DNA of 64,000 bases from Candidatus Tanganyikabacteria bacterium (GCA_016867265.1 VGJW01000015.1:1056-65055); one strand, 5' to 3'; positions 19,304-62,494 are shown, numbered from the stretch's first letter. The notes: generated by a model not told the origin, from the letters alone. A program made the numbers and translations.

Positions 19304-19342
19304 GACGACCTCCTCCGGGCCCCGCGACCTTGGAGACAAAAG

Positions 19343-19414
19343 CTGGGGCGGTAGGATTCGAACCTACGAATGTCGGCTCCAAAGGCCGATGCCTTACCGC
19401 TTGGCGACGCCCCA
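19343..19414 (-). tRNA. tRNA-Gln (anticodon TTG)
   Basis: On the reverse strand the sequence TGGGGCGTCGCCAAGCGGTAAGGCATCGGCCTTTGGAGCCGACATTCGTAGGTTCGAATCCTACCGCCCCAG has a cloverleaf very close to E. coli tRNA-Gln. The anticodon loop is CTTTGGA and the CCA end is not encoded. Confidence 0.85.
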
Positions 19415-21903: not shown

Positions 21904-22595
21904 GTCGTCCTGACGCCGTCCGCGGCGAGGATCTGGTCCGCAGCTACGCCCAGGGAGAAGGCGCGGTCCATGCCCTTGCCGGCGTCAGCATGCGGATTCC
22001 CCACGGTGCCTGGGTCGCCATCACGGGTTCCAGCGGCTCGGGCAAGTCGACGCTGCTCAACCTGCTGGGCTGTCTCGACCGCCCGACGTCAGGCCACCTC
22101 GCCATCGACGGCAACGACGTCGCGGCCCTCGACGACGCCGGCCTCGCCCGCCTGCGGAACCGACACCTCGGCTTTGTCTTCCAACAGTTCCATCTGCTGT
22201 CAAGGACCTCGGCCGAGGAGAATGTCGCCCTGCCGCTCGTCTATGCCGGTGTTGCCCGCCCCGAAAGGCTGGCGCGTGCCCGGGAAGCCCTGGACCGGGT
22301 CGGTCTCGCCGACAGGCGGACGCACTGGCCCAGCCAACTGTCCGGGGGCCAGCAGCAACGCGTGGCCATCGCGAGAGCCCTCGTGACCCGGCCGACGCTC
22401 CTGCTGGCCGACGAACCGACAGGTGCCCTGGACTCCCGGACGAGCGAAGAGATTCTCGATCTGTTTGCCGACCTGCACCGTCAGGGCGCGACCGTCGTGA
22501 TGGTGACGCATGACCCGGCGGTGGCGGCCCGGGCGAGCCGACGCCTGGTGCTGGCGGATGGTCGGATCGCAAGCGACGACGGAAGCCTGTCATGA
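21900..22595 (+). CDS. ABC transporter ATP-binding protein (MacB/LolD/FtsE-type)
   Basis: Walker [10 protein letters not shown], the signature [15 protein letters not shown] and Walker [13 protein letters not shown]-coupled to hemL. Confidence 0.85.
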
Positions 22596-23893
22596 CCAAG
22601 CCCAGCCGCATCGCGGCGTTGACCCTGCTGACCTTCCTGTTGGCGACGGCCCGGGCTGTCGCCAACCCCGAAGCCCTGGACTTGGGCCGACTGCTCGACA
22701 GGGTACGCGCGACCCATCCGGAAGTGGCTCTGGCCCGGATCAGCCAACTGCGCGCGCAGTTGGAGCGCCAGGTCGCGACCGAAGGCCGCTGGACCGGCCG
22801 TGTCGGCCTCGACGGGTTCGGCGTGGCCAACCAGCGCCTGCCCTTGAGCGGCACGGCGCCCGACCCCTCGGGATTCAGCCAGGGCACGCTCTCGGCTGAA
22901 GGCCGCCTCGTGCTGCTCGACGGCGGTCGGCTCGGCTATGCCGATGCTGCAGCGGCCGCCGGGGAACAGGCCGCAGGGGCCCGCGCCGGGACAGCGCTCA
23001 GGGATCTTGCGGACGGCGTCATTCGTGGCTTCTGGGATCTGCGCCGTGCCGAACTGCTGCGGCAGGTCGCTCAGCAGCAGGTCCAGCAGGCCCGTGCCAC
23101 CTGGGAGGCAGGCCAGGCCGACCTGGCCCACGGCCGCAGGGCTGCGGGCGACGTGGCGGGACTCGAGGCGGCGCACCTTGCCGCCGAATCTGCGTGGCAC
23201 AGGCAGGATCAGACCGTCGCCGAATTCAGGGCGCGCCTTGCTGCCTTGGTGGGCCTGAGTGATGATGCGTGGACCCTCGCGGCGACACCCGTGGCCCCCG
23301 ACAGCCTTCCCGAAGCCTCGGGCAGCTGGCAAGCCAGACCGGAATGGCTGGCCCAGCGCGCCGCGGTCGAGCAGGCCCAGGCGCGACTCGGCGAGGCAGC
23401 CGCAGCGCTCGCTCCGACTGTCGGCCTGTCGGGACGCCTCGAGACCGGAAACGGCCTCGTGCGACCGGACATCCAGCTGCGGACGACGGACCCCTTGGCC
23501 TCGCAATGGAGCCTGCGCCTCGACGTGGCCTGGCCCTGGCTGGACAACGGACGTGCGGGCCGGGCGGCCGAGCGCGCGCGACTCGACCTGCTCGAGGCCG
23601 ACCAGCGAGCAGAACGCCTGCGACGCGATCTCGAACGGGACGAACGCCTGGCCCGCGAGCGCCTGCGCCAGGCGCTGCTGCGCCTGAAACTTCAGGACCG
23701 TGCGGTGGTGGTGGTCGGCCAGGCGCACGCGCTGACAGCCACCCGCTTCAGGCAGGGCCTTGCACTGCCCGTCGAGCTGGAATCGGCCCGCACCCGTCTC
23801 GCCCAGGCCCAGGCCGACCGGATCGATGCCGGCATTGAGGGCATGGTCGCCCATTGGGATCTGGCCCTCGCTCTCGGCAAGGAGAATCCATGA
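22592..23893 (+). CDS. TolC-like outer membrane efflux protein (OEP family)
   Basis: A signal peptide and long coiled/alpha-barrel repeats with OEP-like periodicity. ATGA-coupled. Confidence 0.7.
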   Translation: MTKPSRIAALTLLTFLLATARAVANPEALDLGRLLDRVRATHPEVALARISQLRAQLERQVATEGRWTGRVGLDGFGVANQRLPLSGTAPDPSGFSQGTLSAEGRLVLLDGGRLGYADAAAAAGEQAAGARAGTALRDLADGVIRGFWDLRRAELLRQVAQQQVQQARATWEAGQADLAHGRRAAGDVAGLEAAHLAAESAWHRQDQTVAEFRARLAALVGLSDDAWTLAATPVAPDSLPEASGSWQARPEWLAQRAAVEQAQARLGEAAAALAPTVGLSGRLETGNGLVRPDIQLRTTDPLASQWSLRLDVAWPWLDNGRAGRAAERARLDLLEADQRAERLRRDLERDERLARERLRQALLRLKLQDRAVVVVGQAHALTATRFRQGLALPVELESARTRLAQAQADRIDAGIEGMVAHWDLALALGKENP

Positions 23894-38316: not shown

Positions 38317-40848
38317 ATGCTTCGTTCGCTGGATTCCGGCGTGTCCGGATTGCGCAACCACCAACTCAAGATCGACGTCATCGGCAACAACATCGCCAAC
38401 GTCAACACCGTCGGCTTCAAGAGCCAGCGCGTCGAGTTCCAGAACCTGCTGAACCAGACCCTTTCGGTCGGTACGTCGGGCGAAGGCGGACGCGCCGGCA
38501 CCAATCCGCAGCAGGTCGGTCTGGGCGTGGGTGTGGGCTCGATCACGAGCATCCATACCCAAGGCGCCTTGCAGGGCACCGGCAAGAGCACAGACCTTGC
38601 CATCCAAGGCGAGGGCTTCTTCGTCGTCAGCGACGGCAGCCGCAACTTCTACACCCGCGACGGAAGCTTCGACTTCGACAAGACGGGCAGCTTTATCCGC
38701 CCGGCCAACGGCCTCAAGGTCATGGGCTGGACCACGGCAAACGGCGTCATCGACACCACGGCCGAACCCGCTCCCATCCGTGTGGCCCGGGGCCAGAACC
38801 TGCAACCCAAGGCCACCGGTTCCGTGCGGATCAAGGGCAACCTGCGCTCCGACAGCGTCGACACGATGATCACGGGTATCCTCAAGGCGACGCCCAAGGG
38901 CGCGGCGGAGGCTGGCATGGTCGTCCTGCAGCATAACATCCTCAACTCGAAGAACCAGGTCATCCACGGCACGATCACGATGATCAATGACCCCGGGACG
39001 CTGACGTGGCAGGTCAGCTACCGGCCGCGTGCAGGCGACCTCGACGCCGACCAGCTGACCAACCCCAACGAACAGGGGCTCGGTACCTTGACCTTCGACA
39101 CCTCGGGCCGCCTCACCAGCAACACGCTGGGGGCCATCCGCCTCGCCTTCACGCAGGAGAGCGGTGCAAACGCCATCGAGTCCCAGGTCATCCCCAGCCA
39201 GTTGCAGATGAACTCCGAGGTCCCGCGCTCGCGCCTGGGCTTCGACAACATCGCGGGCCTGATCAGCGGCAACTTGCAGCCGGCGGTGCTCAAGGTACCC
39301 GCGACGCTGGGCGGCCTGTTGGCCCCTGCGGCGGTCGGACCCAAGGACGTCAGGCGGCCCATGAATCTGCGCGTCGCCAGCGGCAACACCATCGAAGGCG
39401 AGCTCAGCCTGCGCAACACCCAAGGCAGCAACACCTGGTCCGTCTCCTACCTGCCCAAGAGCGGCACAACGGGCCAGGACAAGCTTCGCTTTGCCGACGA
39501 GCAGAATCTGGGTGTCATCAACTTCGACCCCGTAACCGGGGAACCGGTCGGAACCATCAGCCTCAAGGACATCAAACTGCTGGCCAAGGACACCGTCACG
39601 CCCACGCTCGTCACGGTGACCGTCCCGACCCTCGCGACGGGCTCGGCCCTGAAACTGGGTGCAACGGACGCGGTAGAGGCGAACCTTGGTGCAACCGTCA
39701 GCGACGCCGTCGTCAAGGAGACGCGCTTCGACATCGCCAACGCCCGGACCTACAGTGCGGAGACCGGCCTTGTCGGTAGTCAGGTCGTCACGGGCAAGCT
39801 CGTCGTCCGCAACGCCCCCGGCGAGGCCACCTGGTCCGTAACCTACGTCCCGGACGACACGCCCGAGAACCGCGGTCTCATCAACTCGACGGGTGAGCAG
39901 CAGTTGGGATCGTTCAGCTTTGATACGGACGGCAAGCTGACCACCACCGACCTCGAGCCCATCCGGTTGCAGTACCAGAACCTGAGCACGCCCGACGTGA
40001 CGGCCCATCTGGACTTCGGCGACATCGGCTTCGACCCCAATGAGACCAAGGGTCTCGCGGAGGTCGTCCAGACCTCGGGCAAGACCGATGCCGGTTCGTA
40101 CACGATGTCGATGAACTTCTTCGACTCGCTGGGCAACTCGCACTCGGGGAACATCCTGTTTACCCGCGACCTGGAGCAACAGGCCGACGCCGACGGTCGT
40201 TCCAAGTGGCGGGTCTCGTTCGGCATCGTGGACCCCCAGGTCAAGAACGACCTGAAGGCCCTGCCCGGTCCGGGCGTGGGTGCCTTCCCCATCGACCTCG
40301 GCTACATCATCTTCGACAACGGCGGTCTTCCTGTCGACGTCAACCTGTCGCCACTCAAGCTCAACTACACTTCAGGCGCCGCGCCCTCGACGATCTCGTT
40401 CGACCCCGGCAAGCGCGGGGATACGCTGGGCCTGACGCAGTTCCTGACGACCTCGACGGCCATCATCGACGACCAGGATGGCTACTCCACCGGCACATTG
40501 CAGGGCTTCAACATCGACTCCAACGGCTATGTCTCGGGCGTCTTCACGAACGGCCAGATCCGGCAGTTGGCTCAGATTGCCCTGGCCTCGTTCAACAATC
40601 CGAACGGCCTCGTCAACGAAGGCAGCAACATGTGGTCGGTCGGCAACGCGTCCGGCGACGCGCAGGTCGGCACCGCCGGTTCAGCGGGACGCGGGCTGCT
40701 GGCCTCGTCCAACCTCGAGACGTCCAACGTCGATCTGGCGGCCTCGTTCTCGGAACTGATCATCTCCCAGCGCGGTTTCCAAGCCAACTCCCGCATCATC
40801 ACCACCTCGGACGAAGTTCTGCAGGAGCTGATGGGACTGAAGCGCTGA
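38317..40848 (+). CDS. flgE: flagellar hook protein FlgE, unusually long (843 aa) with four internal ~50-aa repeats
   Basis: An N-terminal rod/hook motif (IDVIGNNIANVNTVGFK) and a C-terminal ...ASSNLETSNVDLAASFSELIISQRGFQANSRIITTSDEVLQELMGLKR. The SD AGAGGAGG precedes it. Confidence 0.9.
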   Translation: MLRSLDSGVSGLRNHQLKIDVIGNNIANVNTVGFKSQRVEFQNLLNQTLSVGTSGEGGRAGTNPQQVGLGVGVGSITSIHTQGALQGTGKSTDLAIQGEGFFVVSDGSRNFYTRDGSFDFDKTGSFIRPANGLKVMGWTTANGVIDTTAEPAPIRVARGQNLQPKATGSVRIKGNLRSDSVDTMITGILKATPKGAAEAGMVVLQHNILNSKNQVIHGTITMINDPGTLTWQVSYRPRAGDLDADQLTNPNEQGLGTLTFDTSGRLTSNTLGAIRLAFTQESGANAIESQVIPSQLQMNSEVPRSRLGFDNIAGLISGNLQPAVLKVPATLGGLLAPAAVGPKDVRRPMNLRVASGNTIEGELSLRNTQGSNTWSVSYLPKSGTTGQDKLRFADEQNLGVINFDPVTGEPVGTISLKDIKLLAKDTVTPTLVTVTVPTLATGSALKLGATDAVEANLGATVSDAVVKETRFDIANARTYSAETGLVGSQVVTGKLVVRNAPGEATWSVTYVPDDTPENRGLINSTGEQQLGSFSFDTDGKLTTTDLEPIRLQYQNLSTPDVTAHLDFGDIGFDPNETKGLAEVVQTSGKTDAGSYTMSMNFFDSLGNSHSGNILFTRDLEQQADADGRSKWRVSFGIVDPQVKNDLKALPGPGVGAFPIDLGYIIFDNGGLPVDVNLSPLKLNYTSGAAPSTISFDPGKRGDTLGLTQFLTTSTAIIDDQDGYSTGTLQGFNIDSNGYVSGVFTNGQIRQLAQIALASFNNPNGLVNEGSNMWSVGNASGDAQVGTAGSAGRGLLASSNLETSNVDLAASFSELIISQRGFQANSRIITTSDEVLQELMGLKR

Positions 40849-40853
40849 CGTAG

Positions 40854-41825
40854 ATGAGCCTGGCTGCCCCCGGTCCCGTCGAGGGTCCCCGCCCCGTGGC
40901 GGAGTACTCCGGCGTGACCGGGGGCGTGCCGCCTGTATCCGGCCGCGCGGGGAGTCCCCAGGGCCAGGAAGACAAGCCCGTCCCCACCGCGGAAGGGCCA
41001 GACGGAGCCCGTCGCGCCCTCGAGGATGCGGGGCTGCCGACGACGCCCGCGACACGAAGCCTCGTCCAGGCCATGGCCCAGGCCGGCCTGCCGGCAACCC
41101 CCGCGATGCTGCGCCGCCTGGTGGCCAATTGGCCGGATATCCCTGCCGAGATGCGCGCCACGGCCCTCGGACTCGCGGCACGGGGCCTGGTGCCGACGGC
41201 CGCCCTACTGGCCCAGGGCCCGCCGGACCAGGGCCCGCCACGACCGGCCCAGACGATCCGGAGCTGGATGTCCCGACTTGGCCATCCCGCCCTGACGTTG
41301 CTCGCCGGCGAGGGGGATCCCCTCGCATCGCTCATGACGTGGATCGATCGCCTGACGCCGCCCGAAGCACGGCTCGCCCGACAGCTGCGCGACCCGTCTG
41401 CAGGCGACACGTTCCCGGATCCGGGGCCGAGGTCCGGCGAATGGCCGACGGAAGAGGCCTGGCCCCAGGGCTTCGCCCGAATGGTCGACCCTGCCGCACC
41501 TTGGACCATTCCGTTGGCGTGGGGGCCCTGGACCGGCACTTGGACCCACTGGGACCGGGATGCCCGCACTTCGGCAGGGCCGGCAGACGCGGAGCAAGCA
41601 TGGCGAACCGTCCTCGCCCTCGAGCATCCCGAATGCGGTCGGGTACGCCTGCATCTCGCCGGCGCAGGCAGGCAACTGGTCGTGCGCATCCAGGCCGAAG
41701 ACCCGGCGCTGCGCGAAGCCCTCGCGGCCCTCGTGCCCGAAGTCTCGGCCCGCGTCGCGGAACTGGGCTGGATCGGTCCGCCCTGGGCCGTCGACGCAAC
41801 GGACAAGGAGCCCCATGGCTCCTGA
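40854..41825 (+). CDS. hypothetical protein in flagellar operon (323 aa, Ala/Pro-rich)
   Basis: An ORF in an operonic position between flgE and the FlhB-C-like gene, with no recognisable domain. Confidence 0.5.
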   Translation: MSLAAPGPVEGPRPVAEYSGVTGGVPPVSGRAGSPQGQEDKPVPTAEGPDGARRALEDAGLPTTPATRSLVQAMAQAGLPATPAMLRRLVANWPDIPAEMRATALGLAARGLVPTAALLAQGPPDQGPPRPAQTIRSWMSRLGHPALTLLAGEGDPLASLMTWIDRLTPPEARLARQLRDPSAGDTFPDPGPRSGEWPTEEAWPQGFARMVDPAAPWTIPLAWGPWTGTWTHWDRDARTSAGPADAEQAWRTVLALEHPECGRVRLHLAGAGRQLVVRIQAEDPALREALAALVPEVSARVAELGWIGPPWAVDATDKEPHGS

Positions 41826-42132
41826 GGTTCCCGCCATCGGCGACAGTCGCGAACCGAGCGTCCAGCGCCGGGCCGTGGCCCTGCGGTACGACCCTGAACG
41901 GGATGCGGCACCTGTCGTGGTGGCCGCAGGGATGGGGGCGCTTGCCGAACGGATCATCGAGGCGGCCAAGGCCGCAGGCGTTCCGTTGCACCATGACATC
42001 CAGCTGGTGGCGGCCCTCGCGCAGCTCGATCTGGGCGAAAGCATCCCCGCCTCCCTGTATCCTGTGATCGCGGAGTTGCTGGTCATGGTCCAGCGCGCAG
42101 GCAAGGGCACGCAGGAAGGTCGGTCCCCATGA
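41815..42132 (+). CDS. FlhB C-terminal domain-like protein (EscU/YscU/FlhB family fragment, YlqH-like)
   Basis: AVALRYDPERDAAPVVVAAGMGALAERIIEAAKAAGVPLHHDIQLVAAL...IPASLYPVIAELLVMV matches the FlhB cytoplasmic domain without the NPTH site. The ATG at 41815 has AAGGAG upstream. Confidence 0.75.
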   Translation: MAPEVPAIGDSREPSVQRRAVALRYDPERDAAPVVVAAGMGALAERIIEAAKAAGVPLHHDIQLVAALAQLDLGESIPASLYPVIAELLVMVQRAGKGTQEGRSP

Positions 42133-42347
42133 TTCGCATGACGCGGCTGAACGACCAAGTCATCGTCGTGAATGCCGACCTGATCGAGAGTCTGGAGGCC
42201 ACCCCGGACACGGTCGTCACGCTCACCACCGACCGCAAATATGTGGTAAGAGAGTCGGTTGACGAGCTGATCAATCGCATCATAGCCTACCGTCGGGCCT
42301 GTGCCGTACCTTTGGGGCTCGGCTCCCGCGACCCTGGAGACACGTAG
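42129..42347 (+). CDS. flbD: flagellar protein FlbD
   Basis: MIRMTRLNDQVIVVNADLIESLEATPDTVVTLTTDRKYVVRESVDELINRII is the FlbD consensus. ATGA-coupled. Confidence 0.85.
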   Translation: MIRMTRLNDQVIVVNADLIESLEATPDTVVTLTTDRKYVVRESVDELINRIIAYRRACAVPLGLGSRDPGDT

Positions 42348-43130
42348 CTGGAAATCTCGACCCTGATCGGGCTCATTCTTGGCTGGGGCGGCATCATCAT
42401 CGCCTATGTCCTCGACGGTGGGCACCTGGGAGCCCTGGTGGTTCCGACTGCCGCCATGATTGTCTTCGGGGGCACCTTCGGGACGCTCTTCATCGCCTTC
42501 CCGATGAAGGATGTGCTCACGATCCCCAAGCTCATCGGCTTCACCTTCTCGAAGAATCCGCTCGAGCCTCACACGATCATCCCGCAGATGATCCGCTACG
42601 CCGAAAAGGCCCGCAAGGACGGCCTGCTGGCGCTTGAGGCCGATGTCCAGGCCGCCCCGGACGAGTTCCTCAAGAAGGGCATGCAGATGGTCTCGGACGG
42701 CATCGACATCAAGACCGTCCGCGAGATGCTGGAGACCGAGCTGGCCTTCATCGCGACCCGCCACGCGGGCGGTATCGCGATGTTCGAGGCCGCGGGCGGC
42801 TTTGCCCCCACAATGGGGATCATCGGCACGGTCATGGGCATGGTCCACATTCTGGGCAGCCTGGGCGGAGACTCGGACCCCGCGGCGCTGGCCCCCGCCA
42901 TCGGCGTCGCCTTCATCGCCACCCTGTACGGGGTGTTCTCGGCCAACCTTCTCTGGCTGCCCATGGGCACCAAGCTCAAGAAGCGTTCCGAAGAGGAAAT
43001 CCTGGTTCGCGAACTGATGCTGGAAGGCATCCTGTCGATCCAGGCCGGCGACAACCCGCAGATCGTCGAGGAAAAGCTCAAGGGCTACCTGTCGCCTGCG
43101 GTGCGCGCCACCATCACCAAGGAAGAATGA
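42348..43130 (+). CDS. motA: flagellar stator protein MotA; the N-terminus aligns to the codon immediately after the flbD TAG, which is a CTG with no canonical start
   Basis: LEISTLIGLILGWGG...AAMIVFGGTFGT aligns with the MotA N-terminus (MDxxSLIGIIL...). The nearest in-frame ATG (42438) would remove the first TM helix. Confidence 0.75.
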   Translation: MEISTLIGLILGWGGIIIAYVLDGGHLGALVVPTAAMIVFGGTFGTLFIAFPMKDVLTIPKLIGFTFSKNPLEPHTIIPQMIRYAEKARKDGLLALEADVQAAPDEFLKKGMQMVSDGIDIKTVREMLETELAFIATRHAGGIAMFEAAGGFAPTMGIIGTVMGMVHILGSLGGDSDPAALAPAIGVAFIATLYGVFSANLLWLPMGTKLKKRSEEEILVRELMLEGILSIQAGDNPQIVEEKLKGYLSPAVRATITKEE

Positions 43131-43134
43131 TTCC

Positions 43135-43899
43135 GTGGGCAAGAAGCGGGGTCACAAGGGCGGCAGCCACGCCAACCACGAGCGCTGGCTGCTGACGTAT
43201 GCCGACCTCATCACGCTGCTGTTGATCTACTTCATCATCCTGTTCTCGATGTCGTCGATCGACGCCAGCAAGTTCAAGAAGATGGCGGACGCAATGGCGA
43301 GCGTCTTCAACCCGACGGCCTCCTCGGGCGGCGGCAACGATGCGGTCTTGCCCCCCGCGAGCGACATGGTCATCCCGCCGGTGGCGCCCATGTATGCCAA
43401 GGAGGAATCCGAATTCGAGGAGATGGCCGACAAGGTCGAGAAATTGGCCGAACAACTGGGCGCCAGCGCTTCCTTCGACGTCCACATGGAGAAGCGCGGG
43501 CTCGTCATCTCCATCGCCGACTCGGCGCTGTTCGCCGCGGGCTCTGCCGACCTGGATCCGAAGACCCGCGAAATGCTCGGCAAGGTCAGCGGCCTGGCCG
43601 CCAAGACCGGCAACAGCCTGCGGATCGAAGGCCACACGGACAACACGCCCATACGTTCGGCCCGGTTCCCGAGCAATTGGGAACTCTCCACGGCCCGCGC
43701 CACCGCCGTGGTCCGGCACCTTGTCGACACGGGTGCCCTGCCTCCGTCACGGGTCTCGGCGGCCGGCTACGGCGACACCTTCCCCAAGGCCCCGAACGAC
43801 TCCCAGGCCAACCGTTCCCGGAACCGGAGAGTCGATATCGTGGTCCTGAGCGATGCTACAATGGCGCAGGAACCCATGAAGCCTGCTCCCGGAGACTGA
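43135..43899 (+). CDS. motB: flagellar stator protein MotB (OmpA-like C-terminal domain)
   Basis: A TM helix with conserved Asp (LLTYADLITLL) and an OmpA-like domain (RIEGHTDNTP...NRRVDIVV). GTG start. Confidence 0.85.
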   Translation: MGKKRGHKGGSHANHERWLLTYADLITLLLIYFIILFSMSSIDASKFKKMADAMASVFNPTASSGGGNDAVLPPASDMVIPPVAPMYAKEESEFEEMADKVEKLAEQLGASASFDVHMEKRGLVISIADSALFAAGSADLDPKTREMLGKVSGLAAKTGNSLRIEGHTDNTPIRSARFPSNWELSTARATAVVRHLVDTGALPPSRVSAAGYGDTFPKAPNDSQANRSRNRRVDIVVLSDATMAQEPMKPAPGD

Positions 43900-50453: not shown

Positions 50454-52559
50454 ATGGCCAGCCAGTCGACCGCCCCCGCCGGAAGCGCTGCTCCGGGCGG
50501 CCTTGCGGCCTTGGCGCGAAACTCGGACATCGTGCTGGCCGTCATCATGGTGTCCGTCGTCATCATGATGATCCTGCCGATACCGGCGGCCATCCTCGAT
50601 TTCCTGCTGGTCGTCAATATCACGGCCAGCCTGCTGATGTTGCTGCTGGCGCTCTACGTGATCGAGCCCGTCTCGCTCAACACGTTTCCGACGCTGTTGT
50701 TGCTGCTGACCTTGTTCCGGCTGGCACTCAACGTCTCGACCACCCGGGTGATCCTGCTCGATGCCGACCACGTGCCCAAGGTCGTCGAGGCTTTCGGCAA
50801 GTTCGTCATCGGCGGCAACTATGTCGTCGGTCTGGTCGTGTTCCTGATCCTCGTCATCATCCAGTTCGTCGTCATCACCAACGGCGCAGGCCGCATCTCG
50901 GAAGTCTCCGCGCGCTTCACGCTGGATGCCATGCCCGGCAAGCAGATGGCCATCGACGCCGACCTCAACAGTGGCCTCATCCAGGAACAGGAGGCCAAGG
51001 AGCGCCGGCAGGCCATCCAGCGCGAGGCCGACTTCTACGGCACGATGGACGGTGCCAGCAAATTCGTCCGTGGTGACGCCGTCGCAGGTCTCATCATCAC
51101 GGCCATCAACCTGGTCGGGGGCATCGTCATCGGTGTCCTGCAGCAGGGACGACCGCTCGTCGATGCGGCCGGAAGGTATACCGTCCTGTCCATTGGTGAT
51201 GGCCTGATCAGTCAGATTCCCGCCCTGCTGATCTCGACCGGTACCGGCATCCTGGTGTCGCGGGCCGCCAGCACCACCAGCCTCGGCGAGACCATCGCGG
51301 GCCAAATCACGGCCAGCCCGCGACCGCTGCTGATCGCGGCCGGCATGCTCGGGTTCCTCGCCGTCGTGCCGGGCTTGCCCGGGCTGCCCTTCCTGCTCGT
51401 GGCCGGCATCGTCGGCGGAATCGGCTATACGATGGTGCGCCAGGACCAGGCAGGCAAGGCTGCCGCTGCCGCCATCGAGATGACGGACGAGGCCGGCATC
51501 GAGGCCCCCAAGGGACCCGAGAACGTCATGAGCCTGCTCAAGGTTGACGCCATGGAGCTCGAGGTCGGCTACCGGCTGATCCCCCTCGTGGATACGAGCC
51601 AGGGTGGGGACCTTCTTGAGCGCATCACGATGATTCGCCGGCAGATGGCCCTCAAGATGGGGCTGGTGGTCCCCCCCATCCGGGTCCGTGACAACCTGCA
51701 GCTCAAGCCCAAGGAATACCGCATCAACATGCGGGGTATCGACATCGCGCGAGGCGAGGTGCAGATCGACCACTTCCTCGCGATGGACTCAGGCCTCGCC
51801 GTTGAGCCCGTGGACGGCATCGCGACGGTGGAACCGGTCTTCGGGCTGCCCGCGACGTGGATCACGGAAGACCGCAAGGAACAGGCCGAAATGGCCGGCT
51901 ATACGATCTTCGACGTGGCCTCGGTGATCGCGACGCACCTCATGGAAGTGCTCAAGGCCCATGCGCCCGAGATCCTGACCCGCGCCGACACCCAGGCCCT
52001 TCTGGACAACCTCAAGCAGGAACAGGAAGCCCTCGTCAATGCCGTCGTGCCCGAGTTGTTGCAAGTCTCGGATGTCCAGCACGTCCTTCAGAACCTGCTG
52101 CGGGATCGTGTCAGCATCCGGGACCTGATTCCGGTCATGGAGAGCCTGGAGACGCATGCTCGCCTGACCAAGGACATCGACACGCTGACGGAATATGCCC
52201 GGCTTGCCCTTGCGCGCTCCATCTGCAAGGCCAGCCTGGGCCCCGATGGTGCCCTGTCCGTCCTGACGCTGGACCCCGACCTCGAGAATCACATGGCGCA
52301 AAATATCCAGCAGACGGATCAGGGCGCTTTCGTCAGCCTCGAACCCGGCCTTGCCGGCATCATCCGCCGCAACACCCGCACCCTGGTCGAGCAGCAATTG
52401 GCCTCGGGCATCTCGCCCGTCGTCCTCTGCTCCAGCAAGGTCCGCCTCGTCTTCCGCCGCCTGATGGAGCGGGACCTGCCCCAGATTCCGGTCATGGCCT
52501 ACAACGAGGTCGTCCCGACCAGCACCGAGGTCCGCGCACTCGGGGTCATCCAGACATGA
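50454..52559 (+). CDS. flhA: flagellar export apparatus protein FlhA
   Basis: A 701-aa product with the FHIPEP family N-terminal TM region and a conserved cytoplasmic domain. Confidence 0.9.
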   Translation: MASQSTAPAGSAAPGGLAALARNSDIVLAVIMVSVVIMMILPIPAAILDFLLVVNITASLLMLLLALYVIEPVSLNTFPTLLLLLTLFRLALNVSTTRVILLDADHVPKVVEAFGKFVIGGNYVVGLVVFLILVIIQFVVITNGAGRISEVSARFTLDAMPGKQMAIDADLNSGLIQEQEAKERRQAIQREADFYGTMDGASKFVRGDAVAGLIITAINLVGGIVIGVLQQGRPLVDAAGRYTVLSIGDGLISQIPALLISTGTGILVSRAASTTSLGETIAGQITASPRPLLIAAGMLGFLAVVPGLPGLPFLLVAGIVGGIGYTMVRQDQAGKAAAAAIEMTDEAGIEAPKGPENVMSLLKVDAMELEVGYRLIPLVDTSQGGDLLERITMIRRQMALKMGLVVPPIRVRDNLQLKPKEYRINMRGIDIARGEVQIDHFLAMDSGLAVEPVDGIATVEPVFGLPATWITEDRKEQAEMAGYTIFDVASVIATHLMEVLKAHAPEILTRADTQALLDNLKQEQEALVNAVVPELLQVSDVQHVLQNLLRDRVSIRDLIPVMESLETHARLTKDIDTLTEYARLALARSICKASLGPDGALSVLTLDPDLENHMAQNIQQTDQGAFVSLEPGLAGIIRRNTRTLVEQQLASGISPVVLCSSKVRLVFRRLMERDLPQIPVMAYNEVVPTSTEVRALGVIQT

Positions 52560-53332
52560 CGACCGACCTCGCCGCATTGAAACAGGCCGTGGCCAGCGTC
52601 TTGCCGTTTCCAATTGACCGGTATCGGGATGATGCGGTTGACCGCCGGCTGGCCTCGTGGCTCTCGGGACGCCCCGAGCAGACCCGTGAGGCCCTTCTGG
52701 AAAGATTGCAGCGGGACATTGACCTGCAGGACGACCTGATTGCCGGGCTGACGATCCACGTGACGGGCTGGCTGCGGGATCCCGAGGGCTTCTCGGCACT
52801 CAGGGACCGGATCCTGCCTGAGCTCGCGACACGCTTCGGGACGGTCCGCATCTGGAGCGCCGGTTGTTCGGACGGGGCCGAGATCCTCTCGGTGGCCGCG
52901 ATGGCCGAGGCCGCCGGCCTGCTGGATCGCTGCGTCCTGACGGCGTCGGACATCAGCCGGCCGACACTCGCCCGCGCAGGCCGCGGCGTCTTCCGGCCCG
53001 AGGCCCAGCAGGGCTTGCCGGAATCCTGGCGGGACAGCAAGGGCACCGTCGCGGCCGACGGTACCTGGACGGCGCCTGCGACATGGCTCGGGGGGATTCG
53101 GTTCGTGGCTCACGATCTGCTTGGCGAACTGCCCCTGCAGGGCCAGCACCTGATCCTGTGCCGCAACGTCACCATCCACATGGTCGACGAAGCCCGGGAC
53201 GAGGTCTGGCGCAAGCTGGGGAGGGCGCTGCCTTCAGGGGGTATGCTGTTCGTAGGTTCGGCGGAACATCTTCCCGCCGGCGGGGAGCACGGCTGCCGCC
53301 CCTTGCGGCCGTTCTTCTACGAGAAGGCCTGA
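52556..53332 (+). CDS. cheR: chemotaxis protein methyltransferase CheR
   Basis: A CheR N-terminal helical domain plus a SAM-binding domain (IWSAGCSDGAE). The ATGA overlaps flhA. Confidence 0.8.
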   Translation: MTTDLAALKQAVASVLPFPIDRYRDDAVDRRLASWLSGRPEQTREALLERLQRDIDLQDDLIAGLTIHVTGWLRDPEGFSALRDRILPELATRFGTVRIWSAGCSDGAEILSVAAMAEAAGLLDRCVLTASDISRPTLARAGRGVFRPEAQQGLPESWRDSKGTVAADGTWTAPATWLGGIRFVAHDLLGELPLQGQHLILCRNVTIHMVDEARDEVWRKLGRALPSGGMLFVGSAEHLPAGGEHGCRPLRPFFYEKA

Positions 53333-53335
53333 CGC

Positions 53336-55387
53336 GTGGACAACGACCAGTACCTGAGCATCTTCCTCGACGAGGCACGGGAGATGCTGCAGCTGCTCAA
53401 CGATCGGCTGCTGCAGCTCGAGGCGAAACCGGACGACCGCAAGTCCGTCGACGAGATCTTCCGGGCAGCCCACACGCTCAAGGGCATGTCGGCCACGATG
53501 GGCTATGCCGCCCTCGCCGACCTCACGCACAAGATGGAGAACCTGCTCGACGCCATCCGCGTGGGCAAGCGCCAGGCCGACAGGACAGTCGTCGATGCCT
53601 TGTTCGCCTGCCTCGACACCATCTCGGGGATGCTCGACGCCATCATCGAGGAACGCTCGGGCCCCGACCACAGGGCACTGGCCCAGCGCCTGACGGCCAT
53701 CCTCGAGCACGCGACGCCCGCTCCGCCCCCCGTGGCCGTGCAGGCCATCGTGCCGGCCGCGGCCGCCTCATCCGGCTGGCCCAGTGTCGCCGACTACGTC
53801 ATGACGGTCATCTTGGAGGGCGAATCCCAAGGGTTCCAGGCGCACTGGATCGAGGTCACGCTCGCCGCCGACTGCATGCTCAAGGGTGTCCGCTCCTACA
53901 TGGTGATGTCGGCGCTCGAGGGGCAAGGCGAGCTGCTCCAGGCGAGCCCCGAGGTATCCGAGCTCGAAGAGGAGCGCTTCGACCGCAGCTTCTCGCTCCT
54001 TGTCCTGTCCAAGGAATCCGTCCAGGACCTGGAAGCCCGCATCCGCGACGTCTCCGAGGTCACCTCGGTCCGGCACGCGCCGTTGTCCGGGCAGCGCACG
54101 GCCGCGGCGCCACCGCCCACGGTCTCGTCGCCACCGGAACTGCCGCCCCCGGCCGCGGCCCAGCCGGTATCCCCGGCACCGCCTGCTCCTGCCTCACCGG
54201 CCAAGGGCGGTCAAGACCAGAGGGGGGACGAGGGCAAGGCCAAGGTCGCCCAGACCGTGCGCGTCGCCACGGAGCGCCTCGATGCCCTGGTCAATCTGGT
54301 CGGGGAACTCGTCATCGATCGAACGCGGCTGCAGGAAATCGTCCATCGCTACGAATCCGACGATGTGAAGGAAGTCATCCGCCACGTCGGCTCCGTGATC
54401 TCGGATATCCACGGCGTGATCATGAAGCTGCGCATGATGCCGGTCGAGCGGGTTTTCAGCCGATTCCCCCGCATGGTGCGCGACCTCGCGCGCGAGCTCA
54501 ACAAAGAGGTCCAGCTGGTCGTCGAGGGTCAGGAAACGGAACTGGACCGCCTGATGATCGACGAAATCGCAGACCCGCTGCTGCATCTGCTGCGCAACGC
54601 CGTCGATCACGGTCTCGAGCCCGGTGACGACCGCGAACTGATGGGCAAGCCCCGTGTGGGCACCATCCGCCTGGCAGCCAGACACGAAGGCAGCCACGTC
54701 ATCATCGAGGTGCAGGACGATGGCAAGGGTCTGGACCCCGAACGCATCCGTCGCAAGGCCGTCGAGAAGGGACTGATCGGCCAGGAAGAGGCGCAGCGGC
54801 TGAACGACAAGCAATGCCTGGACCTGCTCTTCCTGCCCGGCTTCTCGACCCGTGACGAGGTCACGGACATCTCGGGCCGGGGCGTCGGCATGGATGCGGT
54901 GAAGGCCAAGACCCTGGCGCTCGGGGGCGTGCTCGACATGACGAGCCAGGTCGGACGCGGCACCCACGTGACGGTCATCCTACCGCTGACGCTGGCCATC
55001 ATCCAGTGTATGCTGACGGAGGTGGGCGAAGAAATCTACGCCATCCCCATCAGCTTCATCGAGGATGCGCACGACCTCGTGGACATGTCGCTGCAGTCTG
55101 TCCAGGACGAGGAGATGGCGATGCTGCGCGGCCAAAGCCTGCCCCTTCGGCGGCTGCGCGAGGCCCTCGACGTCCCCGGCGGCATTGCAGGCCAGGAGGC
55201 ATCGGTCGTGATCGTCCGGGTCGGTTCTCGCCGCACGGGCTTCCTCGTGGACCGCCTGCTGGGTCAGCAGGAAGTCGTCATCAAGCCCATCAGCCGGCTT
55301 GCAGGCGGCATCGGCCAAGTCAGTGGCGCCTCGATCCTAGGCGACGGACGCATCGCGCTCATCCTCGATGCGTCGGCGGTGGCCTGA
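53336..55387 (+). CDS. cheA: chemotaxis histidine kinase CheA
   Basis: HPt (AAHTLKGMSATMG), a dimerisation domain, HATPase (...DDGKGLD...) and a CheW-like C-terminal domain. GTG start. Confidence 0.9.
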   Translation: MDNDQYLSIFLDEAREMLQLLNDRLLQLEAKPDDRKSVDEIFRAAHTLKGMSATMGYAALADLTHKMENLLDAIRVGKRQADRTVVDALFACLDTISGMLDAIIEERSGPDHRALAQRLTAILEHATPAPPPVAVQAIVPAAAASSGWPSVADYVMTVILEGESQGFQAHWIEVTLAADCMLKGVRSYMVMSALEGQGELLQASPEVSELEEERFDRSFSLLVLSKESVQDLEARIRDVSEVTSVRHAPLSGQRTAAAPPPTVSSPPELPPPAAAQPVSPAPPAPASPAKGGQDQRGDEGKAKVAQTVRVATERLDALVNLVGELVIDRTRLQEIVHRYESDDVKEVIRHVGSVISDIHGVIMKLRMMPVERVFSRFPRMVRDLARELNKEVQLVVEGQETELDRLMIDEIADPLLHLLRNAVDHGLEPGDDRELMGKPRVGTIRLAARHEGSHVIIEVQDDGKGLDPERIRRKAVEKGLIGQEEAQRLNDKQCLDLLFLPGFSTRDEVTDISGRGVGMDAVKAKTLALGGVLDMTSQVGRGTHVTVILPLTLAIIQCMLTEVGEEIYAIPISFIEDAHDLVDMSLQSVQDEEMAMLRGQSLPLRRLREALDVPGGIAGQEASVVIVRVGSRRTGFLVDRLLGQQEVVIKPISRLAGGIGQVSGASILGDGRIALILDASAVA

Positions 55388-56829: not shown

Positions 56830-57627
56830 ATGGCCGTAAGCCCGGCTCCTGAGCTTTGGTCGCGGTTCATCCGGACGGGTGACAGCAAGGATCGGGAGCA
56901 GCTCATCATCCACTACATGCCGCTTGTCCGGTATGTGGTAGGGCGCCTTGCCCTGACGTTGCCGGCGACGTTGGATCCCGAGGATCTCTGCGGCTACGGG
57001 CTCATCGGCCTGATTCAGGCGGTCGAGAAGTTCCAGCTCGACCGCGGCGTCAAGTTCGAGACCTATGCGGCGACCCGTATCCGTGGCGCCATCCTCGACG
57101 AGCTGCGCAGTCAGGATTGGGTCCCGCGTTCGGTCCGCAGCCGGGGGCGGGAGATATCCGAAGCGATGGTCCAGCTGGAGGGCAGCCTGGGTCGACCCGC
57201 CACCGACGAGGAGCTGGCGAACAGGCTCGGCATGACCGTGACCGAGCTGGGCCACGCGATGGCGCGCGAAACCAGCCCATTCCTGTCCCTCGACGAGATG
57301 ATCCAGGGCAGCGAAGACGGCCAGACCATGACTTGGCTCGACACCATGGCCGACGACCGCCCCGGACCGGCCCATGTCCTCGAGGAAGATGAATTCCGGC
57401 AGGAGCTTGCGGATGCCATCGACCGCCTCCCTGAGCGCGAGCGGCAGACGCTTGCGCTCTACTACAAGGAAGGGCTGACCCTGAAGGAGATCGGGCAGGT
57501 CCTTGGCGTCACCGAGTCCCGGGTTTGCCAGATCCACACCCAGGCCGCGATGCGCCTTCGTGGGCATATCAACCGCTACCTGGGCATCTCGACCGATGGC
57601 GCGGCCCCCCGCAGGAGCCGCAAGTGA
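56830..57627 (+). CDS. fliA: flagellar sigma factor FliA/SigD (sigma-28)
   Basis: Regions 2, 3 and 4 of the sigma-70 family with FliA-type spacing (...LIGLIQAVEKFQLDRGVKFETYAATRIRGAILDELR...LKEIGQVLGVTESRVCQIH...). GAGGTG lies 5 nt upstream. Confidence 0.85.
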   Translation: MAVSPAPELWSRFIRTGDSKDREQLIIHYMPLVRYVVGRLALTLPATLDPEDLCGYGLIGLIQAVEKFQLDRGVKFETYAATRIRGAILDELRSQDWVPRSVRSRGREISEAMVQLEGSLGRPATDEELANRLGMTVTELGHAMARETSPFLSLDEMIQGSEDGQTMTWLDTMADDRPGPAHVLEEDEFRQELADAIDRLPERERQTLALYYKEGLTLKEIGQVLGVTESRVCQIHTQAAMRLRGHINRYLGISTDGAAPRRSRK

Positions 57628-58106
57628 ACGCCACGGGCAACACGAACCGGCCACGGTCCGTCGATGGCAAGCTGCAACTCGTCACATTCAAGCTGGGTGA
57701 AGAGGTCTATGGCCTGCCCATCGGCCATGTGCGCGAAATCATCACCTCGCGCAAGCCGACACGCCTGCCGGGATCCGCGCCTCATGTGTCCGGACTCATC
57801 AATCTCCGCGGCGAGGTGATCCCCGTCTTCCAATTGCGGGTCTGGTTCGGCCTCAAGGACGAGGCCCCCGCGGCATCGGCCACCATCATCACCGAATGGA
57901 AAGACGAGCGTTTCGGCTTCCAAGTCGATTCCGTGCAACAGGTCGCTTGGCTCGACCGGAGCCAGATCGACCCGCCCACCGCGCAATTCCAGCAGCATGC
58001 CCCCCATATCTCGGGATTGGGGAAGCACGAGGGACGCCTGATCATCTTGCTGGATCTCGATGCACTCTTCCGGGACAGCGATGAGGATGCCCACGGCCGT
58101 GCCTGA
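57624..58106 (+). CDS. cheW: chemotaxis coupling protein CheW
   Basis: LQLVTFKLGEEVYGLPIGHVREII...GLINLRGEVIPVFQLR is the CheW domain. The GTG start overlaps the fliA stop (GTGA). Confidence 0.85.
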   Translation: MNATGNTNRPRSVDGKLQLVTFKLGEEVYGLPIGHVREIITSRKPTRLPGSAPHVSGLINLRGEVIPVFQLRVWFGLKDEAPAASATIITEWKDERFGFQVDSVQQVAWLDRSQIDPPTAQFQQHAPHISGLGKHEGRLIILLDLDALFRDSDEDAHGRA

Positions 58107-59361
58107 CGCCTGGGTGCGTCTTGGCCATGTCGAGATCCCTGTGCCGCCCCCCGAGGCGTTGGCGCAGGGCCTTGAAGCGTTGCTGCCGGTCTCCGAGGCG
58201 GGTGCAACATGCCTGCACGCTGCCGTGATCGGAGTCGCGGGCGGTCGCTGGCAAGTCGAGACCTTCGAGGCCGGGCCCGACCTGACATTGCCGCCCCTGC
58301 CCCGGAACGGCGGGCCTGCCGCAGCAGGGCAGGCCTGGACCGTGACGTTCCTCGCCCCGACGGGATTGGGCCTTGCGACCGGCGGCTTCGCCGGAGATGC
58401 CAATCCGGCCGTCAGCCTGCTTGCCGCCACGGCCGATCGCTGCGTCACCCATCCCAATGCGATCAATGCCGCTGCGCTCAACTGGGCGCGACCGGGTGTG
58501 GCCTACGTCGAGGGTGGCTTGCTGGACGGATGGCTGGCCGGACGGTGGGACCTCCTGCCGCAACGCGCCCATACGCTGGGCCTCCTGATCGATGGAGGCC
58601 TTCCCCGCCGGGCGCAGGATGCCCTCGATAACGCGATCGCGGCCTTTCGCACGGTGGGGGGCGGGCGGGTGATCCGCGAGGAGATGGCCGTTCCCCTGCG
58701 CATGACGCTCACACGGGACGGACGCGGACGCAGCGCAGGCACCATTGCCGACGCCTCGGCCCTGCTCGAGGCCGGCCACCGTTTGATGGCCCGGGGCGCG
58801 ACGGCCATGGCCATCGTCAGCGACATGACGCACCTGGCCTTGCATGACGAAGCCTATGCCTCGGGACAGGGGCCCGATCCCATCGGCGGACTCGAAGCCA
58901 TGCTCTCCCGCGTCCTCGGACGGGCGCTCGGAATGCCGGTGGCCCATGCCCCTTGGCTGCCGGTGTCCTGCGACCCGGTCGATCCACGCGGAGCCGCCGA
59001 GGAACTGGGGCTGGACTACCTGCTGTGCGTGCTTCGGGGCCTGCAGCGCGCGCCCGTGCCCGTGGCGCCCGGCACCCGGGGCGCCTGGCCGGCCGAGGGG
59101 ATTGTCGTCGTGCCGAGGACCGCGGCAGGAGGCAGCGGCACGCTTGCCGCCGCGGGACGCGGGCTGGCCCTGGTCGCCGTGGACAATCCGGGCGTCCTCG
59201 ACATCACGCCGGCCGCGCTCGGCATCGAGGCGTGGCACGCGCGCTCGTGGGCCGAGGCTGCAGGCCTGAGCCTCGCCCTGCGCGAGGGCCTCGCTCCCGA
59301 GACCCTGGAACGTCCCCTTGCACGAAACCTTGCGCGACCTGCCGGGGTCATGATCGGGTGA
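58081..59361 (+). CDS. conserved hypothetical protein (about 426 aa) coupled to the downstream ECF sigma factor
   Basis: A long ORF with conserved-looking GGFAGDANP...THPNAINAAALNW motifs. The start is ambiguous (58060, 58081 or 58087) and overlaps the cheW 3' end. Confidence 0.5.
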   Translation: MRMPTAVPDAWVRLGHVEIPVPPPEALAQGLEALLPVSEAGATCLHAAVIGVAGGRWQVETFEAGPDLTLPPLPRNGGPAAAGQAWTVTFLAPTGLGLATGGFAGDANPAVSLLAATADRCVTHPNAINAAALNWARPGVAYVEGGLLDGWLAGRWDLLPQRAHTLGLLIDGGLPRRAQDALDNAIAAFRTVGGGRVIREEMAVPLRMTLTRDGRGRSAGTIADASALLEAGHRLMARGATAMAIVSDMTHLALHDEAYASGQGPDPIGGLEAMLSRVLGRALGMPVAHAPWLPVSCDPVDPRGAAEELGLDYLLCVLRGLQRAPVPVAPGTRGAWPAEGIVVVPRTAAGGSGTLAAAGRGLALVAVDNPGVLDITPAALGIEAWHARSWAEAAGLSLALREGLAPETLERPLARNLARPAGVMIG

Positions 59362-59941
59362 ACCTCACGCAACAGGCCCGACCGGGTGCCGGCCCCAGCC
59401 GGACAGCCCTCGTTCGGGCGGCACAGCGCGGGGATGAGCGGGCGTTCCGCGCGCTTGTCGCCGATATCCAGCAACGACTGTGGCAAGTTGCGCGCCGTCT
59501 GGCCGGGGACGACGACAGGGCAGCCGACCTCGTGCAGGAGAGCCTGATGCGTGCCTTCCGGGCCCTGCCTCGGCTCCGGGACCCCGAACGCTTCATGTCG
59601 TGGCTGTTGCGCATCCTGAATCACGTTGCGACCGATACGCTCGGGGCGCGCCAGCCGGAATCCCTCGAGGACCTCGCCGAAGCCGGCATCGAGCCCATGG
59701 CCTCGGAGCTCGAGGGACCCGAGGCGCGGGCCGAAGCCGCAGGCACCGCCGAAGCGATCGATCGCGCACTGGCCGCCATGCCGATGATCTATCGCCAGCC
59801 CTTGGTCCTGCGGCACGTCCTCGACCTGACTTACGACGATCTGGCGCAGATCCTCGACCTGCCGCTGGGCACGGTCAAGACCCGCCTGTTCCGGGGCCGG
59901 GAGATGCTGCGCGAACACCTGCTGCGGGAGGGGATCCGGCC

Positions 59942-59945
<4 letters not shown>
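59358..59945 (+). CDS. ECF (sigma-70 family group 4) sigma factor
   Basis: Region 2 (DLVQESLMRAFRALPRL) and region 4 HTH (LTYDDLAQILDLPLGTVKTRLFRGREML). GTGA-coupled to the upstream gene. Confidence 0.8.

Positions 59946-62494
<2,549 letters not shown>

Follow-up and report, generated by a model that had tools for sequence, protein, structure and literature searches.

Translation table 11 allows rare near-cognate initiation codons (CUG, AUU, AUC, and AUA), among them the AUU of Escherichia coli infC, which has an established role in autoregulation through initiation factor 3 (IF3). Like GUG and UUG, CUG matches the initiator anticodon in its second and third positions. Of the NUG starts (N, any nucleotide), it is the weakest in E. 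coli (PMC11497404; 10.1101/063800). Here we analyze a CTG codon at the beginning of the flagellar stator gene motA in a 64,000-nucleotide (nt) stretch of DNA, hereafter the window, from a member of the Sericytochromatia, group "Candidatus Tanganyikabacteria" (GCA_016867265.1 VGJW01000015.1:1056-65055), a nonphotosynthetic relative of cyanobacteria from an uncultured lineage. Full-length MotA of 260 amino acids (aa) is, in all likelihood short of certainty, translated from the CUG at position 42348. The motA case resembles other near-cognate starts in having a conserved codon, a normal Shine-Dalgarno (SD) sequence, and an ordinary conserved protein as its product, but it differs from infC, where AUU is regulatory, in that the CUG of motA is kept class-wide for a multicopy structural protein. 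As read from the comparative data, the CTG start is well supported as genuine, specific to motA, and conserved in the class, and it would add a new case to a phenomenon that is rare but already known. The literature searched yielded nothing on CTG as the start of motA or on which start codons Sericytochromatia use.

Two other kinds of described system bear on this locus. In the termination-reinitiation pairs trpE-trpD, galT-galK, and rplK-rplA (PMC12548453), a stop codon and a start codon are adjacent in a packed operon, and the SD sequence lies inside the upstream gene. The flbD-motA junction, at which stop and start are 0 nt apart, shares these features, but those pairs have canonical starts where motA has CUG, and in some relatives of the window genome the two codons are spaced by 11 to 54 nt. 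Programmed stop-codon read-through fusions are similar in that a single UAG stands between two open reading frames (ORFs) in one frame, the second of which is without a canonical start. They differ in that relatives of the window genome keep the CTG without conserving either the shared frame or a leaky stop. The gene order flbD-motA-motB is that of spirochete and Firmicute flagellar operons, in which flbD belongs to the FlbD/SwrD family (PF06289).

As an earlier reading of the sequence alone had claimed, motA has no canonical start at the aligned position, the MotA homology begins at the CTG directly after the flbD TAG, and the flbD and motA ORFs form one reading frame across that single TAG. 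An in-frame scan of the window detected no ATG, GTG, or TTG between the flbD TAG and codon 31 of motA, and translation from CTG 42348 reads LEISTLIGLILGW... / LEISTLIGLILGWGG... and continues for 260 aa to the TGA at 43128-43130. A shared frame by itself has a one-in-three chance of occurring; what goes beyond chance, as judged from the alignments, is that the CTG is exactly homologous to the starts of orthologs and that it is conserved. The sequence-only reading had also placed the first in-frame ATG at 42438. That codon is GTG, and the first ATG lies at 42456, but the accompanying point stands for either codon: initiation at GTG 42438 or at ATG 42456 drops the first 30 to 36 residues, including transmembrane helix 1.

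The CTG-started protein matches MotA_N (PF20560) over residues 6 to 74 (profile positions 1 to 70; E = 6.8e-09, above the gathering score) and MotA_ExbB (PF01618) over residues 102 to 221 (E = 4.7e-32). Residues 2 to 250 align with residues 2 to 247 of the solved MotA 9lu9 (E = 1.5e-63), and alignments were also obtained with the solved stators 6ysl (Bacillus subtilis), 8bri (PomA), and 6ykm. Most solved MotA and PomA chains, the two best matches included, align residue 2 to residue 2, and 6ysl aligns 4 to 4, which bears out the earlier claim that the N-terminal homology of MotA starts at the CTG. Many orthologs have the sequence M-E-[ILF]-[SA]-T beginning at exactly the CTG-equivalent codon. 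Full-length collinearity with solved stators, transmembrane helix 1 included, holds only with the CTG start. The predicted CTG-initiated N-terminal peptide would be formylmethionine (fMet)/Met-EISTLIGLILGW...

Related loci (numbered with the prefix L) were inspected at the level of junction DNA where public MotA homologs had short or unusual N termini. Comparison of the flbD-motA junction in related genomes, which the sequence-only reading had named as a check, returned CTG at codon 1 in 15 verified related Sericytochromatia loci, the most distant with a MotA identity of about 58%, and canonical NTG codons in others. The flbD stop and the CTG are contiguous in L018, L019, L020, L064, L065, and L010 (TAG, as in the window) and in L103 (TAA), and they are separated by 1 nt in L013 (TAA). 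Longer spacers occur in L014, L021, L024, and L102 (TAA and 12 nt), L106 (TAG and 11 nt), L105 (TGA and 23 nt), and L030 (TAA and 54 nt). In 14 of the 15 CTG loci there is an upstream in-frame stop and no canonical start before the CTG; the exception is L030, in which a GTG lies six codons upstream of the CTG. Canonical ATG, GTG, or TTG occupies the same codon in L022, L023, L025, L027 to L029, L067 to L069, L084, L085, L101, and L107, and no CTC, CTT, CTA, or other non-NTG codon occurred at codon 1 in the clade members examined.

This pattern differs from that of leucine codons in general. CTG accounts for 41% of the 478 internal leucine codons in the same genes, and the probability that seven diverged lineage groups would all have CTG at an ordinary leucine position is about 0.0008, independence being assumed. 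In a deeper clade, where an ATG or GTG lies 1 to 4 codons upstream and the homologous codon is internal, that codon varies among TTA, ATT, TTG, and CTG. Codon 1 is constrained to NTG; that is, it behaves like a start codon and not like a codon for which any leucine triplet would serve. On a MotA neighbor-joining tree, parsimony requires codon 1 to have switched 6 to 7 times between CTG and a canonical start in every one of 100 bootstrap replicates; the count uses DNA-verified states only and is approximate, coming as it does from a single-gene tree. Of the four explanations offered by the sequence-only reading, CTG-initiated translation is the one that these comparisons strongly support.

The use of CTG is confined to motA. 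At codon 1 of flbD, motB, and fliL, 33 related loci always have ATG, GTG, or TTG, and motA is the only one of the 46 gene models in the window, crude as these models are, with a coding-like upstream extension, an SD sequence, and a near-cognate codon. A genome-wide laxity for CTG starts was considered and is countered by the flbD, motB, and fliL starts and by the 46-gene scan. The 70-nt gap between motA and motB in L014 looked suspicious but is an ordinary spacer, motB there having an ATG start. No tRNA-fMet was found in the 50 loci examined for initiator-tRNA features.

Gene calls in public data differ between close and distant matches. Truncated MotA calls make up 12 of the 60 closest matches but only 1 of 62 more distant ones (mostly from other phyla), and the CTG start therefore looks lineage-specific. 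In addition to the 12 short calls, the NCBI annotation of protein P0002 places the start at the CTG. Among truncated calls for which DNA was checked, 9 of 10 hide a CTG, so it is not the case that every truncated call does: P0005 carries TTG, a canonical start, at codon 1 (L107:356-358), and the caller nevertheless took an ATG 15 codons downstream. On the comparative evidence, the CTG start would be a heritable trait of motA in Sericytochromatia and not a lesion.

An ATG-to-CTG error in sequencing or assembly, which the sequence-only reading had listed as an option, has nothing in its favor except how rare CTG starts are. The exact FlbD protein is present on at least 22 public contigs, and 8 of these, assembled separately by JGI (at least four samples), Logan, and ENA from several Lake Tanganyika samples, match the window at 100% identity over the 191 nt that surround the flbD-motA junction. 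Moreover, L018, L019, and L020, which derive from related species-level genomes, have many synonymous differences from the window, at flanking sites among others, and retain the TAG-CTG arrangement. The independent contigs and the recurrence of the CTG in several species refute such an error, and we regard it as next to impossible.

Translation from the CTG would be directed by the GGAG within the last codons of flbD. The spacer between GGAG and CTG, ACACGTAG, takes in the flbD stop codon. At every tabulated CTG locus, the CTG is preceded either by GGAG/AAGGAG at a distance of 8 nt or by a G-rich SD-like motif at 9 to 11 nt, and L106, which is outside that tabulation, has AGGAG 8 nt before the CTG. 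By comparison, SD-like motifs are present upstream of 18 of the 46 window genes, versus 12% of random positions. In the mechanism that we propose, the GGAG would position the ribosome such that initiator tRNA decodes CUG 42348, and we infer that initiation there is with fMet. With no nucleotide between the flbD UAG and the CUG, a ribosome that ends FlbD synthesis would be likely to reinitiate there at once, and such coupling could offset the intrinsic weakness of CUG. Short stop-start distances favor translational coupling (review, PMC12548453), and coupling to flbD termination probably assists motA initiation.

Several considerations weigh against initiation at the CUG, or against coupling as a sufficient account of it. 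The flbD stop is 11 to 54 nt upstream in L105, L030, and L106 (and the 12-nt spacing in L014 and L102 falls within this range), showing that coupling is not the whole story. MotA is needed at five copies for every two of MotB, and a weak motA start is counterintuitive because MotA is in 5:2 excess over a MotB that starts with GTG. CUG confers about 1% of AUG initiation in E. coli and makes up 0.024% of annotated bacterial starts (PMC11497404; 10.1101/063800). Last, in the window genome a second GGAG lies 6 nt before GTG 42438, and some truncated product may arise from that codon. The weakness of CUG leaves three possibilities: context rescues the CUG, the initiation machinery discriminates less, or low motA initiation is tolerated or favored.

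The GTG at 42438 and the ATG at 42456 are the codons picked by Prodigal-type callers, and they raise the alternative that motA is damaged or decaying, or that only a truncated MotA without transmembrane helix 1 is made. The 30 N-terminal codons that these calls omit are, however, strongly constrained, and they encode a helix found in all solved stators. Between the window and L018, these codons show 10 synonymous differences and 1 nonsynonymous difference, and between the window and L019, 3 synonymous and none nonsynonymous; this synonymous excess (10:1 and 3:0) indicates that the 30 codons are translated and under purifying selection. Their G+C content at third codon positions (GC3), 0.80, is typical of coding sequence. 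In L020, at 94% identity, the GTG at codon 31 and its GGAG have not been kept, and the group designated clade X lacks the GTG. Species whose MotA proteins diverge by more than 30% still have the CTG arrangement, and the 260-codon ORF and the surrounding flagellar operon are intact. Inactivation of motA, another of the earlier options, is refuted by the purifying selection on the N-terminal codons together with the intact operon, and damage or exclusive truncation is very improbable as an account of this gene. A truncated side product from GTG 42438, without transmembrane helix 1, is possible in the window genome alongside the CUG-initiated protein.

Initiation might instead take place at a downstream near-cognate codon, either the ATC at codon 3 (42354) or that at codon 7 (42366). 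Table 11 lists ATC among its rare starts, and codon 7 was chosen by the NCBI Prokaryotic Genome Annotation Pipeline (PGAP) for MEB3298252.1 and MEB3203494.1. Across the CTG loci, neither codon is retained as AUH (H, A, C, or U), with CTT, CTC, TTC, and TTT being seen; the conserved SD sequence is 14 nt from codon 3 and 26 nt from codon 7, as opposed to 8 nt from the CTG; and in orthologs that have a canonical start, that start is always codon 1. An ATC start is, on this evidence, unlikely. Public annotation is itself divided over this gene: a comparison of proteins P0001 and P0124 to P0133 shows five N termini for the same motA, giving 224, 230, and 240 aa in Prodigal calls (JGI, Logan, and ENA) and 254 and 260 aa in NCBI. 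GenBank MBM3260023.1 is the window protein translated from the CTG, with methionine at position 1 and 260 aa in length, and MEB3237720.1 and P0002 (which corresponds to L064) are likewise annotated from the CTG-equivalent codon. The NCBI automated pipeline arrived at the CTG call by homology.

The remaining alternative is that ribosomes read through the flbD UAG, as a programmed or a leaky event, and make an FlbD-MotA fusion that serves as the main source of helix 1-bearing MotA. Because the N terminus of MotA is cytoplasmic, a fusion of this kind is topologically possible. In the window, L018 to L020, L064, L065, and L010, a single TAG is all that interrupts the common frame of the two genes, and an in-frame relation holds in six of nine CTG junction classes, above the expected one in three. 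The same bias is present in relatives with canonical starts, which need no read-through: in 9 of 12 of these, flbD and motA are in frame, mostly as a stop codon, 3 nt, and a start codon. Because canonical-start relatives show the bias through this +3 spacing, we attribute it to shared ancestry. Furthermore, the CTG is kept where flbD is out of frame (L013, L106, and L105), flbD ends in TAA in five CTG lineage groups (six loci), its stop is 11 to 54 nt from the CTG at some loci, and codon 1 is fixed as CTG, unlike an internal leucine codon. No fused FlbD and MotA protein occurred among the top 120 matches to a synthetic fusion query; the only long match, P0072 (419 aa, ENA), is a MotA in which residues of about 10 to 190 are tandemly duplicated, probably an assembly artifact. 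The junction showed no stimulatory or sequestering RNA structure, its fold being no better than that of shuffled sequence (z = 0.02). Reassignment or suppression of TAG was also considered and set aside: 9 of the 46 window genes end in TAG, and the window contains a single tRNA, a Gln-UUG, and no suppressor. The fusion put forward in the sequence-only reading is disfavored as a mechanism by the CTG loci that are out of frame, TAA ended, or 11 to 54 nt apart, and we consider it quite improbable as the main source of MotA. A minor fusion isoform arising by UAG read-through is possible in the window genome and in the in-frame lineages, in addition to initiation at the CUG.

Table 1. Coordinates of the flbD-motA-motB region and of candidate initiation features of motA, counted from the first nucleotide of the window
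Feature	Location (nt)	Strand	Basis or remark
flbD, 72 aa; stop TAG at 42345-42347	42129..42347	+	PF06289, E = 1.1e-27; ORF listing
SD core GGAG, 8 nt before CTG, inside the last flbD codons	42336..42339	+	Read from sequence
motA, predicted full length, 260 codons and TGA at 43128-43130	42348..43130	+	MotA_N and MotA_ExbB; alignment to 9lu9
CTG, probable motA initiation codon (residue 1)	42348..42350	+	Directly 3' of flbD TAG; aligns with ATG/GTG/TTG of orthologs
N-terminal 30 codons (LEISTLIGLILGWGGIIIAYVLDGGHLGAL), transmembrane helix 1; omitted by most gene callers	42348..42437	+	Codon comparison, GC3
ATC, codon 7; start in two sibling NCBI annotations (P0001 and P0128; 254 aa)	42366..42368	+	Probably not the real start
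GTG, codon 31; first canonical in-frame start, Prodigal-type choice (230 aa)	42438..42440	+	
ATG, codon 37; first in-frame ATG, start of 224-aa calls (P0131)	42456..42458	+	
motB, GTG start	43135..43899	+	MotB_plug, E = 2.7e-20; OmpA, E = 7.8e-20

These genes are part of a tightly packed flagellar operon on the plus strand, which encodes, in order, FlgE, a hook-length-type protein, an FlhB C-terminal domain (FlhB-CTD), FlbD, MotA, MotB, FliL, FliM, and FliN (Table 1), an order shared with the spirochete and Firmicute operons. The motB start is 4 nt past the motA TGA, and the position of motB next to motA confirms a stator operon. The FlhB-CTD gene (41815-42132, plus strand), situated between the hook-length-type gene and flbD, encodes a stand-alone protein of 105 aa that matches FlhB in its C-terminal part only (PF01312, profile positions 262 to 335). 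Its stop overlaps the flbD start (ATGA), and the gene is also found in related loci. FlgE (38317-40848, plus strand), at 843 aa, is about double the usual length and seems to have a large, repeat-like insertion between its conserved N- and C-terminal rod/hook domains. Elsewhere in the window, 22595-23692, 52559-53336, and 57627-60344 are without a gene in a crude GC3-based model; noncoding features, or genes that the filter passed over, may lie there. The tRNA-Gln (UUG) at 19342-19414 is the sole RNA gene found in the whole window, and an Rfam scan of the window returned nothing beyond it.

A start codon of this type has consequences for annotation. Gene callers that accept only ATG, GTG, and TTG go wrong systematically at this motA, and most metagenome gene calls in the lineage lose transmembrane helix 1 of the stator, which would mislead analyses of topology, structure, and pangenomes. 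That the CUG is kept, and has been repeatedly swapped with canonical starts, suggests that context rescues weak starts or that low MotA initiation is selected. We tentatively raise, as something we think may well not be so, the idea that in Sericytochromatia, and at motA alone, CUG can in effect be exchanged freely with AUG, GUG, and UUG; a change in initiator tRNA or in IF3 discrimination that is particular to the lineage is a possible cause. If true, an interchangeable CUG would imply that a many-copy protein is initiated efficiently from CUG thanks to local context, namely, a strong SD sequence and, in many members, a stop codon immediately upstream. The motA junction of these bacteria would then be a natural model of start-codon selection relaxed by termination-reinitiation or, alternatively, a device that sets the ratio of FlbD to MotA.

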